A stretch of 37,138 bases of DNA, taken from positions 1 through 37,138 of IMG/VR virus record IMGVR_UViG_3300038829_000053. One strand, given 5' to 3'. Source of the stretch: a virus. Position numbers and translations under genes: made by a program. Each line of letters starts with the position of its first letter. Position 1 is the stretch's first letter. The notes beneath the pieces were generated by a model. That model was not told the origin of the DNA. It made no database searches and saw only the letters and a list, made by a program, of their open reading frames with translations. Positions 3,714 to 11,714 of this stretch are shown one piece after another.

Positions 3714-4411
3714 AAAGATATTGTAGCACTCCGAAAGTCAAGTGTTTTCACACTCTTGCGACTATTGCATGGCTTACAAAGCGGTTGGATATTTTCTATA
3801 CCATCCGACCCTCCCATCGAAAGCGGAGTGATGTGGTCTTCCGTAAGCTTCACAAACGGCTCCTGTTGCTTGCAACAGAGACACATGTAGTTGAAGTGCT
3901 TTTTGAGTGCCTCCCACTCCTCGAGAGAATGCGAACCCTCTGCACCAGCTTTTCGTGCCACTCGTTCAAGTACTTTTTTTCGCAGATATTCTTTTCTATT
4001 TTCACCGACCGAAATACCTCCTTTCCAGTGTGGATGACTTTCACCACGCGGTACATGGGTGAGTGACCCATTTTCTTTCCTCCAAATATAAGCACTCAGT
4101 CGAACGCGCTGACCGTTCGGTAACACACCTTTCATCGATTCTTTCTCTCCATAGAAGTGAACCTCGTCGACAATTGTGTGGTTCTTTTTTTCTACCGTCC
4201 GTCTCGCGTACCCTCGTATTCTGAAAGCGTTGTGTACTGCCTGCCGAGTCATTCCGTATGATTCGAGAATGAACCTATCGGGCATGCTGGTGAATCGAAT
4301 CTGGTCAATGCCAACCTGCTCGAGCATGGTCATTATTTTTGCCTGCGATTTACCCCAGTACACATCGGTACTTTTGTATGCACCAGAAATCCAAGTGGGG
4401 GTTTTATTCAT
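3710..4411 (-). CDS. HNH endonuclease (233 aa)
   Basis: C-terminal CLCC...EDHITPLSMGGSDGIENIQPLCKPCNSRK (HNH with Cys4). Visibly more AT-rich than its neighbours. Confidence 0.85.
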   Translation of the reverse strand: MNKTPTWISGAYKSTDVYWGKSQAKIMTMLEQVGIDQIRFTSMPDRFILESYGMTRQAVHNAFRIRGYARRTVEKKNHTIVDEVHFYGEKESMKGVLPNGQRVRLSAYIWRKENGSLTHVPRGESHPHWKGGISVGENRKEYLRKKVLERVARKAGAEGSHSLEEWEALKKHFNYMCLCCKQQEPFVKLTEDHITPLSMGGSDGIENIQPLCKPCNSRKSVKTLDFRSATISL

Positions 4412-4981: not shown

Positions 4982-5638
4982 TCATATCTCAACAACCGCC
5001 GATGTGCGGTTCTTCTTCATGAACGCCGATAATGCTCCAATTCTCTCCTCTAATTGCACTGCGGTCGTTATGGTCGGCGCGTACTTGCTCCCGTGAACCG
5101 CGACGGCCGCCTTGATGGCGTTCCTCGCCTTGTCGAACCCGATGCTCTGCACTACGCGCTGTAAGGCCGCACGCTGACTCTTGTTGGCGAACATACGTGC
5201 GTAGGACGGATTGACCGGCTTGAACTCCTCGATGAGGTCGTTGAGCGGATTGATATTCGGTGCGATCACACCGTCGAGAGATCTACCTTCTTTTTTCAAT
5301 ACAGTCACTGCTTTTTCAATTTCCGCACTTGTCACAAAAAGATTCTGTGTCTTCTCCTCCACCGGCTCTGAAGTGTACGCGAGATGATACTCCATCCGGC
5401 CACTCGGGAGCCGGCGACGCTCGAGCAACTTCGCGCGCTCCAGTTCCTTGAGTACGCGGAATACGATATCCTTGCTTTCCTTACATTCATCAGCGATCCG
5501 CGCGGCCGCGAAATCCCAATCGTCCGGCTTCGAGAAAAGATACGCGTACAGGCCCTTATCTTTCAACGATAAATCTGGTCGCGAGAGTACCTCGTTGGCG
5601 ACCATGGTGAACGGAACATTTGCCTTCGACAGCTTCAT
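4982..5638 (-). CDS. Winged-helix DNA-binding protein, possible replication initiator/organizer (218 aa)
   Basis: N-terminal pattern PFTMVANEVL...LSLKDKGLYAYL...DWDF...IADECKESKDIVFRVLKELERAKLLERRR is typical of phage Rep/DnaD-like wHTH domains. ATGA overlap with the upstream gene. Confidence 0.5.
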   Translation of the reverse strand: MKLSKANVPFTMVANEVLSRPDLSLKDKGLYAYLFSKPDDWDFAAARIADECKESKDIVFRVLKELERAKLLERRRLPSGRMEYHLAYTSEPVEEKTQNLFVTSAEIEKAVTVLKKEGRSLDGVIAPNINPLNDLIEEFKPVNPSYARMFANKSQRAALQRVVQSIGFDKARNAIKAAVAVHGSKYAPTITTAVQLEERIGALSAFMKKNRTSAVVEI

Positions 5639-6165
5639 GTTGATTTCATTATACCTTGTCTGTTAATGGAGTTATCCACTCCCGACCCGCGCGGCCTCCG
5701 ATTATTTGACTGCTCCTTCGGAGTCGCCCATCGGCAGTTTTTCTTTGAATATCCCTTATCGTTGTCAATGCGATCGAGTGTCATCCCAGCAGGTCGATCG
5801 CCCATATCCCTATAGAATCTCTCGAACTTCGACCACTCCTTGCACACCTTGATTCCCCTGTCGCCGTAATACTTATATTCTCGGTACTGCGGTTTATTGC
5901 ATCGATAAAACATTGCACACCACGTCTGATAAATCGGAGTACCCGACATCCCATGGGTTGTCTTCGTTTTTATTCGACTCTCGATAAGAAGACATCCGCA
6001 CGATCTCTTGTGGCCATTCCTCAAATTGACACCTTGAGTCTTCGTGACTTTCCCGCAATCGCATAGGCATGCATACATGAATTGCCCAGCATTCCCTTTC
6101 TCTGAAAGTGCCTTGGTGACGGTCAATCGACCGAATCGTTTACCCTCTAATAGTATTCTCTGCAT
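5635..6165 (-). CDS. HNH-like/homing-endonuclease-related DNA-binding protein (176 aa)
   Basis: GKRFGRLTV...CLCDCG...SCGC N-terminal Cys cluster and LDRIDNDKGYSKKNCRWATPKEQSNN C-terminal motif. This is a common free-standing phage gene family. Confidence 0.6.
   Translation of the reverse strand: MQRILLEGKRFGRLTVTKALSEKGNAGQFMYACLCDCGKVTKTQGVNLRNGHKRSCGCLLIESRIKTKTTHGMSGTPIYQTWCAMFYRCNKPQYREYKYYGDRGIKVCKEWSKFERFYRDMGDRPAGMTLDRIDNDKGYSKKNCRWATPKEQSNNRRPRGSGVDNSINRQGIMKST
5648..5653 (-). promoter_or_regulatory. Putative -10 box G-TATAAT, 9 nt upstream of ATG 5638
   Basis: The minus strand reads aagGTATAATgaaatcaacATG. The box is embedded in the 3' end of the upstream gene. Confidence 0.4.
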
Positions 6166-7678: not shown

Positions 7679-8226
7679 ACATTCTTAGTTACCGAATACC
7701 CTGCTATGACACAAATACCGATTGCACGTTCGAGGATGCTGTCGCCGAGGATGGACGCCTCGTCGGGGATACAAGATTCAGGGTTCATTGGTTCAGTATC
7801 CAACCTGCGGGAGAACGAGACGCCGAGATCGCCGCTGCGAGGGCCGGGCCCATCGAAGCTGACGAGCGCACCCGCGACGTCGAAGTCGCCGACATGCACG
7901 AGGACGCCGTCAGACTCGCGACTACTTGTTCTTACGTAACAGTCACCGAAAGCATATTCACCTGTATCCTGATGATGTTTAATCACCGCCCACATGAGCA
8001 CAGCTACAGGTGGCACTTCGTCTCCCTTTGAAAGAAGTTTTTGTTGCTCGTCCCATGTCTTGTTGAATGAGTTTTCGACTGGTTCAAGTGAGACATCCCA
8101 TGTGCCTGTTATCTTCTCTTTGGCAAAGTTTTCGTTGTCGTACCATGCGTTTGTTTTGAAATAGAAGTAATTAGGAAACTCGGAACGAATATCGAGGAAT
8201 GATTTGTTTGTTAGGGTGATTTTCAT
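7675..8226 (-). CDS. Hypothetical protein (183 aa)
   Basis: ATGA coupled on both sides. No motif recognised. Confidence 0.65.
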   Translation of the reverse strand: MKITLTNKSFLDIRSEFPNYFYFKTNAWYDNENFAKEKITGTWDVSLEPVENSFNKTWDEQQKLLSKGDEVPPVAVLMWAVIKHHQDTGEYAFGDCYVRTSSRESDGVLVHVGDFDVAGALVSFDGPGPRSGDLGVSFSRRLDTEPMNPESCIPDEASILGDSILERAIGICVIAGYSVTKNV

Positions 8227-9167
8227 AGTGATCCACCGAGCTCACGATTAAGAAATGGGTCGGTCTCCTTCTGCCACTCCTGTATCGCCTTACAGTGCAA
8301 GAACGCCTTGAAGTCACGATCGGCGAACGAGTCCTCACTGTCGAGGAATACCGCCTCGAAGACCTGATACGGTTTGATTGGGTAGGTGCTGGGTTCGCTA
8401 CCCTTAAACTTTGCAACTGCCGCTTTGATCTCTTTCTTACGTGTCTCGCGCTTCATGTACTCCTCCTCGGAATACTTCGAGAGTCGGAGAGCATATCGCC
8501 CATCGTAACCTTTGAACTTCGTGCGCTCCTCCTCGTCAGCCTTAGAGTAAGCAACAGTCTGCATACGCACTGAGTTATAGAGTCCGTTGGAGCTCTTGAA
8601 GTCCCCCATACAGTGAGCGCCGTCGATAACCGCCTCGAAGTCCATGATACCGATATAGTCGTAGCGCATCGAGTAGACCGCACGCTCGGTCGACAGAAAC
8701 TTCACCTTGTGCTCATCGACCCATGCAAGGAATGAGTTGACCCCTGTGATCGCCTCTGGGAAGTTAGGAATCTCTGGCATCTTCTCGAATCCCTTCTGCT
8801 TGAGTTGATGACGGATATACGCCTCGCACCATCCGTGAATCTCATGACCGATATCTGCCGCCTGCTCAAGAAAGAGCTCGCTCTGAATCACTGCCTCGAT
8901 AGCCTTCTCCTCGTCAATCTTGCCACCCTTAGCGAGCGTATCGAGCAAGAAATCAAGAGTGATGTTCTGTTGCCAGCTCATGAGTGGCTTGCTCTTATCC
9001 ATGACCCCGATGATGCCCGTCACACCTCCCTTGCGCACAAACTTCTTGCCACCGTCACGGCTGATGTAGTGCATGTGCCCCTTCTCGTGGAATCGATGAA
9101 TCACCTTGCCACCATAGAGCTCTGTGTACATCACGCCCTCTTCTCCTTTTGCTGGTTTGTAGGTCAT
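8223..9167 (-). CDS. PD-(D/E)XK family exonuclease (314 aa)
   Basis: H-x-Y...GVTGIIGV...SW N-terminal pattern and IGIMDFEAVIDG...MGDFKSS (D...D-x-K) core. Adjacent to the Rad52-like annealase. Confidence 0.65.
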   Translation of the reverse strand: MTYKPAKGEEGVMYTELYGGKVIHRFHEKGHMHYISRDGGKKFVRKGGVTGIIGVMDKSKPLMSWQQNITLDFLLDTLAKGGKIDEEKAIEAVIQSELFLEQAADIGHEIHGWCEAYIRHQLKQKGFEKMPEIPNFPEAITGVNSFLAWVDEHKVKFLSTERAVYSMRYDYIGIMDFEAVIDGAHCMGDFKSSNGLYNSVRMQTVAYSKADEEERTKFKGYDGRYALRLSKYSEEEYMKRETRKKEIKAAVAKFKGSEPSTYPIKPYQVFEAVFLDSEDSFADRDFKAFLHCKAIQEWQKETDPFLNRELGGSL

Positions 9168-9338: not shown

Positions 9339-10172
9339 CTATTTCCTTGGATAGTGATTTTTACATAGCTCCCTCCCGAACATGCGCTTACTGTACTCAG
9401 CCTCCCCCTTCGTTAAATCTGCACCGCATCCACCCTTCGATAATGTCTGACAAACATGATCCTCGATTGGCTCGAGTGGCGCACCCTGCTGAACTGTCGG
9501 CTCCTCGTACACCTTACCTTGCGCCGGGCGTGTGTCCGTTGCTGGTAGTGGAGCAACCCCCGTCTCCTGCTTGTACTCCGCCTTGCCGTAGATATCCGAT
9601 GCGATGCCGAGCAACGATGCGCACTTCTTGAGAGCATCAGTCGATGCGGCCTTGAGGTCGTTGCCGTAGTCGAGCATCGTCTTAGTACCCTTGAGGTACT
9701 TCACCTCCGCGCGGCCGAACTGCATCTTACTGATTGTCTCGCCCGGACGCTGTCCGCGCACAGTAAGACGACCTTTGACCCATATATGCCCCTCGATCAT
9801 GCCGTGCTCCACGATCTCAAAATCCCAATTCCATGCGAACACGAAATTGAGCACCTTCTCGATGTATGAACCGGTGACGTAATCGAACACCTGACCGCCC
9901 TTGCCCGGACGTCGGTAGACATGCTCACGCGGTGTTTTCTGCACCATGCGAATAATCTGCGCATCGTTGAGCCATGTTTTCGGTATCGTGAGCTTCTTGC
10001 CCTCGCGCATCGGTTCCGCGAGATCCGTGACGGTAGGAATGAGTGGCACCTGCTCCACGCGCACCACGATCTCCGTTTTACTCACGCGCGGCTTAGATTC
10101 CTTCGGTATCTTACGCGCTGACTTCTTTACCACTACCTTTCGGCGTGACTTCTTTGCGATTTTTTTTGCCAT
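9339..10172 (-). CDS. Rad52/Rad22-family single-strand annealing protein (277 aa from ATG 10172)
   Basis: RRPGKGGQVFDYVTGSYIEKVLNFVFAWNWDFEIV...KAASTDALKKCASLLGIASDIYG matches the Rad52 core. Shine-Dalgarno AAGGAAG precedes ATG 10172. Lys-rich N-terminus and a Cys/His C-terminal tail. Confidence 0.75.
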   Translation of the reverse strand: MAKKIAKKSRRKVVVKKSARKIPKESKPRVSKTEIVVRVEQVPLIPTVTDLAEPMREGKKLTIPKTWLNDAQIIRMVQKTPREHVYRRPGKGGQVFDYVTGSYIEKVLNFVFAWNWDFEIVEHGMIEGHIWVKGRLTVRGQRPGETISKMQFGRAEVKYLKGTKTMLDYGNDLKAASTDALKKCASLLGIASDIYGKAEYKQETGVAPLPATDTRPAQGKVYEEPTVQQGAPLEPIEDHVCQTLSKGGCGADLTKGEAEYSKRMFGRELCKNHYPRK

Positions 10173-10437
10173 GGTCTTCCTTCTTAATTGGTAATCCGAA
10201 AATCTCACGCGCACCACCTGCTTTGTCCTCGTTGGCATACCTGATAACTGTATGCCCGAGTACACTCTGCACCTTTGCGAGAACATCCATACTGCCTGTT
10301 GGCTCTCCTACGCACACGCGGTGTTTTCCATCGACAATCAAGTCGAATCCATCCACCTCACGCGAGCGTTCGGATACGGCGTACCCTGAACACCAGAGTC
10401 TCCGTTTGACGATATTGATTATGTTTATTTTCGTCAT
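10111..10437 (-). CDS. Hypothetical protein (108 aa from ATG 10437)
   Basis: ATG 10437 lies 6 nt downstream of TATAAT. GYAV...DGFDLIVDGKHRVCVGE faintly resembles a PD-(D/E)XK/Hjc-type core (not assigned). The 3' end overlaps the annealase start by about 60 nt. Confidence 0.5.
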   Translation of the reverse strand: MTKINIINIVKRRLWCSGYAVSERSREVDGFDLIVDGKHRVCVGEPTGSMDVLAKVQSVLGHTVIRYANEDKAGGAREIFGLPIKKEDHGKKNRKEVTPKGSGKEVSA

Positions 10438-10443
10438 AAATCC

Positions 10444-10449
10444 ATTATA
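10444..10449 (-). promoter_or_regulatory. Putative -10 box G-TATAAT, 6 nt upstream of ATG 10437
   Basis: The minus strand reads atgagGTATAATggatttATGacg. Confidence 0.5.
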
Positions 10450-10505
10450 CCTCATTAATAATCTGCAACTGTGAAGTTATCCACTCCCTCGAGATTCGCA
10501 GACCG

Positions 10506-10773
10506 GGGCGCCGTTACTTTCGGGCTGTGCGACAATCGCTTGGTTTCGCTCGTTTTCGGTGGCTCTCGTGAATTGTGCTACCCCCATCTGTATGTCCGCA
10601 CTATCGACCCGATGAAAAGTCTCCAGTCTTTCTCCGAAGAGAATAGCGAGTGGGATACAAAACGCGCTCCTGCCGATCGTGACTGACCAAGTCGTGGCCG
10701 TTTTGCCGCTTATGTCGCCTCATCAACTATCCACGCTTCTGACAGACGAGTCCCTAAGTCCATCACGGCGCCC
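10506..10773 (-). ncRNA. Candidate structured RNA or regulatory element in a 338-nt ORF-free gap
   Basis: It is the largest gap without a credible ORF in a tightly packed genome. A 9-nt inverted repeat (acggcgccc at 10765-10773; gggcgccgt at 10506-10514) could close a roughly 268-nt domain. A UUCG-capped hairpin lies at 10630-10643 and a GCGA-capped hairpin near 10529-10549. Confidence 0.3.
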
Positions 10774-10793
10774 AGTTCTACGAACCTCAAAGA

Positions 10794-11009
10794 TCAACTC
10801 TCTTCGCTCCTCTTGATGACCACGATCGGATGCTTCCTGAATACCATGATCGGATTGAGTCGCCCGAGCCACTCCCAGATGAGTTCCTTGTACGCCGCAT
10901 ACTGAATGCGATCCATTTCAAGTGGTTCACCGACCTGAGTATCTTTCCCCTGCATCACCTGCTCGAGCTCATCGAGCGAACCGAACCTGACTCCTTGGTC
11001 GATTCTCAT
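10794..11009 (-). CDS. Hypothetical protein (71 aa)
   Basis: ATGA overlap with the upstream 57-aa ORF. Confidence 0.55.
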   Translation of the reverse strand: MRIDQGVRFGSLDELEQVMQGKDTQVGEPLEMDRIQYAAYKELIWEWLGRLNPIMVFRKHPIVVIKRSEES

Positions 11010-11179
11010 ACATCCTCTGTGAATGTCACGATGATGCCTGATTCACGATCGATGGCGCCAGCCGGCAGACTCTTCGTATGAATCATCCGCTTAACTTTAT
11101 TTACAGCGTCCGGTGATGTCTCCGCTTCGACCACTAACTGACCCGTGCGCTTCTCGCGCAGATGTACGATGTACTTCAT
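11006..11179 (-). CDS. Small hypothetical protein (57 aa, below cutoff)
   Basis: Translated by hand as MKYIVHLREKRTGQLVVEAETSPDAVNKVKRMIHTKSLPAGAIDRESGIIVTFTEDV. ATGA coupled at both ends. Confidence 0.45.
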   Translation of the reverse strand: MKYIVHLREKRTGQLVVEAETSPDAVNKVKRMIHTKSLPAGAIDRESGIIVTFTEDV

Positions 11180-11315: not shown

Positions 11316-11714
11316 TCAATTAATTATTGCCACCTCGACTCGCTTCTTACCGAACTCAAACGCCTGCGCCTTTGAATGCATCCATATATCGAACCTTTCA
11401 CCGAACCGCGAGTGCATGCGATCGTCACATGTGTACTCCTGCCCGGCGATCAACACACGAGTCCCGAATGCATATCGCATTGGACACGCTACGCTCCCGG
11501 GTCCCGGGCGAGTACCGGCCGCGTTCTCGAACGGCGTACTGTCTGTCTCGTCAACGCTCGATGTGTACGCAGTGACTGTCGCCACCACCCTCTCGCCCTG
11601 TGGGACATCCGTGATGATTATCTGCGCCTCTGCGCTCGGAGTGAGTGCAACCATGAGGACTGTGACCATTGCGATAAATACGACCATGAGTGAGAATGCT
11701 AGGATGTCGTTCAT
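11316..11714 (-). CDS. Secreted or membrane-anchored 3D-domain protein (MltA/YabE/Rpf-associated cell-wall-cleaving fold; 132 aa)
   Basis: N-terminal hydrophobic signal ending in AEA. VTAYTSSVDETDSTPFENAAGTRPGPGSVACP...FGTRVLIAG..YTCDDRM...FDIW matches the 3D-domain pattern. Confidence 0.8.
   Translation of the reverse strand: MNDILAFSLMVVFIAMVTVLMVALTPSAEAQIIITDVPQGERVVATVTAYTSSVDETDSTPFENAAGTRPGPGSVACPMRYAFGTRVLIAGQEYTCDDRMHSRFGERFDIWMHSKAQAFEFGKKRVEVAIIN

Follow-up and report, generated by a model that had tools for sequence, protein, structure and literature searches.

A small family of structured noncoding RNAs at phage intergenic sites where other relatives have homing endonuclease genes

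The DNA analyzed here, hereafter the window, is the whole of IMG/VR virus record IMGVR_UViG_3300038829_000053, a complete virus genome of 37,138 base pairs (bp) with 127-bp direct terminal repeats, in which all credible genes lie on the minus strand. Its gene map places a gene-free stretch between a lysis-like block, which comprises a peptidase-like gene at 11316-11714 and small genes at 11006-11179 and 10794-11009, and a recombination block, which comprises a gene of 108 amino acids (aa), the gene for a Rad52-like annealing protein at 9339-10172, and an exonuclease gene at 8223-9167. The upstream neighbor of the gap is a 71-aa gene (10794-11009, minus strand) with its UGA stop codon at 10794-10796. 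The downstream neighbor is the 108-aa gene (10111-10437, minus strand), which has no assigned function, is probably leaderless, overlaps the Rad52-like gene by 62 nucleotides (nt), and has homologs in the related loci L003, L004, L007, L019, and L102 (L numbers are our handles for loci of related phages and for other contigs). Given a start of this gene at ATG 10437, the noncoding stretch is 10438-10793. Within it lies a structured element of 298 nt (10491-10788, minus strand), 5 nt beyond the upstream stop codon. Comparison with relatives shows that the element is noncoding, that it is homologous to three other distinct copies, and that its fold has been kept by compensatory changes.

Coding-potential profiles across 10456-10793 are flat or negative in all six frames and positive over the flanking genes. 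The two longest open frames of the gap gave no Pfam match and one weak PHROGs match (E = 0.26), and no frame stays open throughout the four distinct copies. These results agree with a preliminary description of the region, which had seen no credible gene in the gap. The same description had considered a decayed gene and had named an intact protein gene at the site in relatives as the observation that would overturn a structured-RNA reading. Such a gene is present in L003 and L004, but its product is an unrelated HNH endonuclease, which the element resembles neither in protein nor in DNA sequence; tblastn searches with the HNH proteins of this site returned scattered noise only. The idea that the gap is a decayed protein gene, or functionless filler with chance structure, could also draw on the weak fold z-score of the window copy and on an 80-codon stop-free frame (10480-10719) in the frame of the downstream gene. 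Yet stops differ among the copies, and the window copy keeps every helix through compensatory changes. We regard this idea as largely refuted and scarcely credible. The 80-codon stretch shares the frame of the downstream 10111-10455 (minus strand), with one TAA between them; this is probably a coincidence, since the other copies do not keep it.

To search for further copies, we used a covariance model, R1, that was trimmed to exclude the flanks and was trained on L007, L004, L018, and L019 only, with the window copy left out. R1 matches the window at 10491-10788 (minus strand) over its full length, with 58.1 bits and E = 5e-18, and this is its sole match there; nhmmer matches the same element with E = 6e-63. 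By both methods, this complete genome carries one copy. The distinct copies, all from related phages of groundwater, are those of the window, L007, and L004, and one shared by L018 and L019, two short groundwater contigs that came from a pattern scan of metagenomes. The L018/L019 copy stands upstream of a homolog of the 108-aa gene, behind a differing upstream gene. Copies of the element, or a gap that matches it, came from the assemblies ERZ1292629, ERZ1292632, ERZ27247785, and SRR22315506. When IMG/VR, JGI metagenomes, and GTDB genomes were scanned for the pattern, the Hainich groundwater copies were the only real matches; pattern matches in L009 and L021 were rejected as chance hits inside coding genes, and single-arm matches in L034, L064, and L092 were likewise rejected as chance. 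Searches with nhmmer and R1 found no further copies in 94 related-phage loci (1.13 Mb), and none were found in five whole IMG/VR relatives, three of them distant ones that are complete or near-complete (CheckV 98-100%). The element is also missing from the 10.8-kb recombination region of the close relative L003, and open reading frame (ORF)-free gaps near the recombinase gene in relatives proved to be ordinary terminator or promoter regions, with no further copies. The region and two of the other copies had no blastn match among GenBank phages, and literature searches found no description of this RNA. We rate the element as a new RNA family among the orphan structured RNAs of phages, a broad kind already known, and its cassette-like behavior as unusual.

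The overall fold consists of a rod of about 32 bp that joins both ends of the element, about eight more helices, and two candidate pseudoknots (PK1 and PK2), laid out as a three-segment rod, a four-way junction, and an inner three-way junction. Each helix was checked in each of the four distinct copies, where all are complementary and occur in the same order. The rod segments are H1 (12 bp), H2 (9-12 bp), and H3 (7-9 bp), with a 5- to 6-nt bulge between the last two. The rod opens into a junction bearing a hairpin, Pc, a helix, Pd, and a small hairpin, Pg; Pd then leads into the core, where GUAUCYC pairs with GRGGGUA and encloses hairpins Pe and Pf.

All positions of these parts are on the minus strand. 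The 5' strand of H1, GAGGUUCGUAGA (10777-10788), pairs with UCUGCGAAUCUC (10491-10502) in 12 bp that include two G-U pairs; at the seventh pair, the window and L007 have C-G, L004 has G-C, and L018 has U-A. The GTAGAAC sequence at 10775-10781, earlier taken for a near-promoter box, belongs instead to the 5' strand of this closing helix. H2 is formed by GGGCGCCGU (10765-10773) and ACGGCGCCC (10506-10514), and the other copies have GGGCAUCGU and ACGAUGCCC, which amounts to two compensatory pair changes. These strands are the 9-nt repeat acggcgccc and its exact reverse complement, just as the preliminary description reported them; the long-range pairing that it proposed holds and forms the second segment of the closing rod. 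H3 joins ACUU.GGG (10752-10759) to CCC..AAGU (10516-10524) and covaries as UCAAUCGAG/CUUGAUUGA in L007 and UCAGUCGGA/UCCGAUUGA in L004. Complementarity of the 3' strand was checked for all three segments. The bulge between H2 and H3, GAUGGA (10759-10764), is the 5' strand of candidate PK2.

Hairpin Pc (10715-10749) has an outer stem, UCGUCU/AGGCGA, an inner stem, GUCA/UGAU, and a 14-nt loop. The outer stem reads GUGCGU/ACGCAU in L007 and GCGGAU/AUCCGU in L004, so that four of its six pairs have changed on both sides. The Pc loop carries CGUGG (10731-10735), the 5' strand of candidate PK1, which pairs with CCACG (10693-10697) directly ahead of a conserved ACGAC. The corresponding pairings are CACGC/GCGUG in L007, CGUGC/GCACG in L004, and CGUAC/GUACG in L018; every cell is paired, and both sides have changed in four of the five pairs. 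For PK2, the rod bulge pairs with the Pe loop as UUAUGGA/UCCAUAA in L004, UUGCGG/CCGCAA in L007, and GCGGA/UCCGC in L018. In the window copy, the bulge could instead pair with UUCAUC of the Pf loop (10611-10616).

Pd is a long helix of variable sequence that encloses the core, and the equivalent helices covary in the other copies. In the window, where it was taken from a forced-pair ViennaRNA fold, UUGGU (10686-10690) pairs with ACCAA (10540-10544; complementarity checked). In the core helix, Y, the UCCC of the conserved GUAUCCC (10652-10655) pairs with GGGG (10582-10585) in the conserved GAUGGGGGUA; L007 and L004 have UCUC/GAGG. The UUCUC-UUCG-GAGAA hairpin noted earlier at 10630-10643 is present as described and corresponds to Pe, which in the other copies has a longer stem and a 14- to 21-nt loop carrying the PK2 partner; in the window it has shrunk to this UUCG hairpin. 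Pf (GAC...GUC, 10606-10621) is replaced elsewhere by CCC-GCAA-GGG, CCC-GUAA-GGG, or CGCC-UUGG-GGCG, so that two copies have GCAA or GUAA caps. Pg (10529-10539) is GCGA-UUG-UCGC in the window and GCGG-GUG-CCGC in L018; it is probably what had been described as a "GCGA-capped hairpin," with GCGA/UCGC as the stem and UUG as the loop.

Two other pairings were considered and set aside. A resemblance of UUGCGGAU/AAUCCGCAG in L007 to the P and Q elements of group I introns was dropped because L004 loses that pairing while the bulge-to-loop pairing holds in all three copies. A local hairpin, GGUUC-GUA-GAACC, in place of H1 was rejected because it would put G against G in L004, whereas covariation is seen with the long-range partner.

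The signals in the window copy are weak when taken alone: a perfect 9-nt inverted repeat is present in 12% of shuffles of the region. Significance therefore stems from comparison with the homologous copies, two of which have strong fold z-scores (-4.9 for L007 and -4.8 for L004). Over 74 modeled pairs, 95.5% of alignment cells are paired, vs. 35-43% when the partners are slid, and there are 27 both-sided pair changes, vs. 4-9 in the slid controls; none of 500 shuffles attains the observed values. Among 49 pairs checked by hand, 22 are variable, 17 changed on both sides, and a single cell out of 181 is unpaired. Twenty cells are G-U; read from the opposite strand, these would become A-C mismatches. 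As judged from these copies, the constraint on the element is structural, not coding, and the structured-RNA reading raised in the preliminary description is now backed by homologs, by compensatory changes, by G-U pairs on the gene strand only, and by the pseudoknot candidates.

Several points weigh against the account that is favored below. In minimum free energy, the window copy does no better than shuffles (minus strand, z = -1.49; plus strand, z = -0.15). With four distinct sequences, the covariation statistics have low power, and the 74-pair alignment had been fitted to the covariance model. The window copy, which lacks the large Pe loop with its pseudoknot partner, could be a degenerating variant. 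Finally, sequence conservation is highest in the rod, where three copies share an identical 24-mer. A plain RNA helix is not usually conserved in this way, which hints at recognition of a specific sequence, in RNA or in DNA, that the favored account leaves unexplained.

Searches for known RNA families were negative. Scans of the window, L007, and L018 with cmscan against Rfam 15, at the gathering threshold and at E values up to 10, found nothing relevant, and the same was true of L003, L004, and L007 at E values up to 1. In agreement with the preliminary description, which could place the region in none of the common families by eye, there was no Rfam match to RNase P RNA, transfer-messenger RNA (tmRNA), 6S RNA, signal recognition particle RNA, or known riboswitches, and none to small ribozymes. 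The ROOL, GOLLD, OLE, raiA, and HEARO models did not match the element either, and a scan of the window with ARAGORN detected neither a tRNA nor a tmRNA. A retron msr-msd was rejected, as six-frame searches of the complete 37-kb genome gave no RVT_1 match while control genomes did. TnpB/IscB omega RNA and IS110 bridge RNA were rejected as well, the genome having no match to the zinc-ribbon model of TnpB-type nucleases (PF07282) or to DEDD_Tnp_IS110, and the flanking genes have no partner nuclease or recombinase domains. A miniature inverted-repeat transposable element would not fit one copy per genome, the lack of a target duplication, and pairing that is valid on one strand only; where the inverted arms are imperfect, the pairs are all of G-U type on one strand, and there is covariation (C-G, G-C, and U-A) at one position.

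The position of the element in relatives was examined through the Rad52-like protein, which has many relatives on contigs of 35-47 kb. In L003 and L004, whose recombinases are 86-87% identical to that of the window, blastn homology to the window ends at 10807 and resumes at 10457; between these breakpoints, window positions 10458-10806 are replaced by other DNA. At this site, which we call site A, both relatives have a gene of 116-118 aa with CxxC...HH...CxxHH motifs and a PHROG endonuclease match, features that identify it as a free-standing HNH endonuclease. In L007 (recombinase 71% identical), site A is a 357-nt gene-free gap whose ends match those of the window, so that site A holds the RNA in both; a further relative, at 81%, has a 352-nt gene-free gap there. 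Site B, between the recombinase stop and the exonuclease start, holds a homologous noncoding element of about 320 nt in L004 and an HNH-AP2 gene in L003, and is empty in L007 and L105. Comparison of the relatives thus shows the element at two intergenic sites beside the Rad52-like gene, where other relatives have unrelated HNH genes or nothing. In all four contexts, the element is in the sense orientation to the surrounding genes and lies between a stop codon and the start or promoter of the next gene; in three of the four, it starts 5-9 nt beyond the upstream stop codon. We found no promoter or terminator of its own and no direct repeat at its junctions.

Free-standing homing endonuclease genes of several kinds (HNH_3, small HNH, HNH-AP2, and GIY-YIG) fill intergenic sites near the lysis and recombination genes of close relatives, at L003 2600-3172, 4317-4673, and 5933-6286, L004 4264-4614, L007 3043-3492, and L103 about 1040-1400. 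The L103 gene has NUMOD4/HNH-like motifs by eye and is uncalled in the source annotation. The sequence GATCTT occurs near the left junction of both kinds of insert, the RNA element (window 10790-10797; L004 5825-5832) and the small HNH gene (L003 about 4333-4340; L004 about 4280-4287). It could be microhomology, an endonuclease-related motif, or chance, as it is only a 6-mer.

We favor the explanation that the element is a gene-like cassette that encodes an RNA of about 300 nt. This RNA has a complex fold and is a member of a small family that is not in Rfam 15, and the cassette would be mobile, accessory, promoter-less, co-transcribed, and probably cut out at the rod. We give this account, taken whole, somewhat better than an even chance. 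The RNA would be transcribed as the tail of the upstream operon, because the element comes without a promoter or terminator, starts just past a stop codon in three of the four contexts, and is always in the sense orientation. RNase III is known to cut long helices in ribosomal RNA (rRNA) precursors and at the intercistronic sites of phage T7, and the rod is a helix of this kind: a flanking stem of at least about 20 bp, made up of H1, H2, and H3, is found in all four copies. Release of a discrete RNA is therefore probable; by analogy with rRNAs from their precursors, cleavage in the rod would yield an end-protected product of about 250-300 nt. The patchy distribution at endonuclease hot spots suggests that the element spreads between phages by recombination at these sites, possibly aided in trans by the neighboring endonucleases. 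Its role, in trans or on the transcript, would be accessory rather than essential. The conserved junction nucleotides and the pseudoknots of the modeled fold argue for specific binding or catalysis. The L004 copy at site B arrived with a TAnnAT box and displaced a tight 6-nt gene junction, which fits a cassette that would otherwise sever downstream expression.

The same position would also suit a cis-acting mRNA segment at the boundary of two operons. As a 3'-end structure, it would stabilize the upstream late or lysis transcript, or insulate or terminate it ahead of the promoter that belongs to the recombination operon, without giving rise to a separate RNA. The element starts 5 nt past a stop codon and ends about 40 nt ahead of a -10 box, after which the next gene has a leaderless start. 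At the corresponding boundary, relatives that are more distant have terminator hairpins together with a DnaA box and a promoter, whereas the upstream operon of the window has no predicted intrinsic terminator. However, a fold of 300 nt with conserved junction nucleotides and pseudoknots goes far beyond what 3'-end protection needs, no U-tract follows the rod, and the L004 element lies inside the recombination operon, where it separates the recombinase gene from the exonuclease gene, although relatives have the two in tight coupling. We consider this account unlikely, while giving it more weight than any other alternative to the excised cassette.

Two further possibilities concern the mobility itself. 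In the first, the element would be a selfish, ORF-less mobile cassette whose fold, as a ribozyme or as an RNA that a host or phage factor recognizes, drives or licenses its own spread to intergenic sites; there, it would compete with homing endonuclease genes and shield the occupied site from them, with the conserved rod as a recognition module. We hold this to be improbable. In the second, which we find quite improbable, it would be a selfish, ORF-less, intron-like element of the ribozyme type. Its fold would take the insert out of the polycistronic transcript or cleave it, which would make the insertion harmless, and it would reach intergenic sites through neighboring homing endonucleases acting in trans. 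The ends of group I and group II introns have an architecture that differs from a long end-to-end rod, and no copy matches any Rfam ribozyme or intron model, even at E values up to 10. The element interrupts no gene in any of the four contexts, so that splicing from its intergenic position would restore nothing, and the filled and empty forms of site B (L004 and L007) differ by an imprecise replacement that brought along a promoter-like box. What speaks for an intron-like element is the size of about 300 nt, the pseudoknotted core, and the GNRA tetraloops, all reminiscent of large ribozymes, together with the constant sense orientation, the alternation with HNH genes at the same sites, and a precedent in phage T4. 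There, mobE and I-TevIII provide a case in which a free-standing HNH homing endonuclease is reported to mobilize in trans an element whose own endonuclease is defunct (PMC2790892). The element resembles this type in being a structured-RNA insert without its own nuclease in a hot spot of coming and going HNH genes, and in varying among related phages in presence, absence, and position; it differs in lying outside genes, in having no intron match or intron-like ends, and in that its mobility is inferred from its distribution. Related work describes endonuclease-driven inheritance of a T4 tRNA gene region through SegB (PMC2330249) and nuclease genes at the boundaries of genetic exchange (PMC10448857).

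The flank of the element also contains a DnaA-box-like sequence, TTATCCACT (10477-10485, plus strand), which has one mismatch to the DnaA box and lies outside the RNA, 6 nt past its end. It is part of a 14-mer, AGTTATCCACTCCC, that recurs at 5670-5683, just upstream of an HTH_36 initiator-like gene. Across the phage group, 27 of 91 loci have the 8-mer TTATCCAC in the 1 kb that precedes the Rad52-like gene (0.27-0.35 vs. about 0.05 per kb elsewhere), an enrichment of about sixfold. These boxes suggest binding of host DnaA, or a phage regulator site, at early promoters or an origin. The DnaA-like box accompanies the site regardless of what fills it, be it the RNA, an HNH gene (L003), or neither insert (L102), and none stands beside the L004 copy at site B. 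Thus, it belongs, together with the -10 box, to the operon boundary rather than to the element.

This bears on the suggestion in the preliminary description that the region is a replication element. A DNA-level or primer-RNA function, either an origin or an origin transcript tied to the adjacent DnaA-like box, has precedents in ColE1 RNA II and the T4 origin transcripts, which are folded pre-primer RNAs, and the element resembles these as a folded noncoding transcript adjoining a replication-protein binding motif. It differs in being dispensable in relatives and in occupying varied sites, with a box that the site owns. It is missing from the three complete or near-complete relatives, from the L003 recombination region, and from the 94 loci, it has been found at two sites in different phages, a single DnaA-like box lies nearby and is a property of the site, its 20 G-U cells pair on one strand only, and the phage has a separate HTH_36 initiator-like gene (4982-5638). 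An origin role was rejected on these grounds, and we consider a replication function of the RNA very unlikely.

Among known RNAs, the excised cassette that we favor is closest to ROOL, GOLLD, OLE, and raiA, large "ornate" noncoding RNAs of bacteria and phages that are the subject of cryo-electron microscopy work (bioRxiv 10.1101/2024.12.08.627333). Like these, the element is long, multi-helix, pseudoknotted, and phage-associated, has GNRA loops, is recognized only by comparative sequence analysis, and has neither a partner protein nor an assigned function. In contrast to them, it is unmatched in Rfam, shorter (about 300 nt), known from four distinct copies in one phage clade, clamped at its ends by the rod, and arranged as a cassette that alternates with homing endonuclease genes. 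The flanking stems of rRNA operons and the intercistronic R sites of T7, which are RNase III processing stems, offer a second comparison: in the element, too, the flanks would pair over more than 20 bp, interrupted by small internal loops, as part of a polycistronic transcript. The R sites are local hairpins of about 60 nt, whereas the rod encloses a folded domain of 230 nt. The rod bulge, moreover, appears to be part of a candidate pseudoknot, and cleavage here is predicted by analogy.

Phage genomes are packed, so 300 bases spent on an elaborate conserved fold would imply a function worth the cost, and pseudoknots, GNRA loops, and conserved junction nucleotides are hallmarks of RNAs that bind specifically or catalyze. 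The lifestyle is unusual as well, that of a promoter-less cassette trading places with homing endonuclease genes around a recombinase gene. If RNase III excises the element, this would be a compact way for phages to house RNA genes in operons; if the fold is tied to mobility or to immunity to homing endonucleases, it would stand for a class of selfish elements that is new. As the family is small, we view it for now as a well-supported lead rather than a mechanism.

The start of the downstream gene was reassessed in the course of this work. The gap had been taken to begin after an ATG at 10455, but the most likely start is ATG 10437, because it lies 6 nt after TATAAT (10444-10449, minus strand), an arrangement seen at 13 gene starts. 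This -10-like box is native to the site, as it is also there when relatives carry the HNH gene. In the window, a TAnnAT box stands 6-9 nt ahead of the ATG at 13 gene-strand starts of ORFs of at least 40 aa, out of 19 such boxes in all; on the other strand, the corresponding figures are five and nine. The boxed gene starts, all on the minus strand, are 36888, 35403, 32549, 24388, 18678, 13390, 11687, 10437, 6656, 6165, 5638, 4411, and 3713. They often have G or TG before the box and are without a Shine-Dalgarno site, a pattern that fits leaderless transcription units.

A few features of the neighborhood were observed along the way. In all close relatives, the gene of 108-139 aa extends 56-62 nt into the start of the Rad52-like gene (window 10111-10172; L003 5001-5056; L004 5001-5059; L007 5001-5062), and the recombinase gene has its own AGGAGG site within its upstream neighbor. 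The two genes thus seem to share a long overlap that is conserved. The 8-mer, as TTATCCAC(A/T), heads the recombination operon at loci that include L003, L010, L013, L018, L024-L038, and L102, and a perfect DnaA box is found near the right end of the genome (36987-36995). In the distant relatives L010, L011, and L015, genes for an RNA ligase and a polynucleotide kinase-phosphatase lie downstream of the recombination genes; this is a module of the tRNA-repair type, which the window phage does not have in the region examined.

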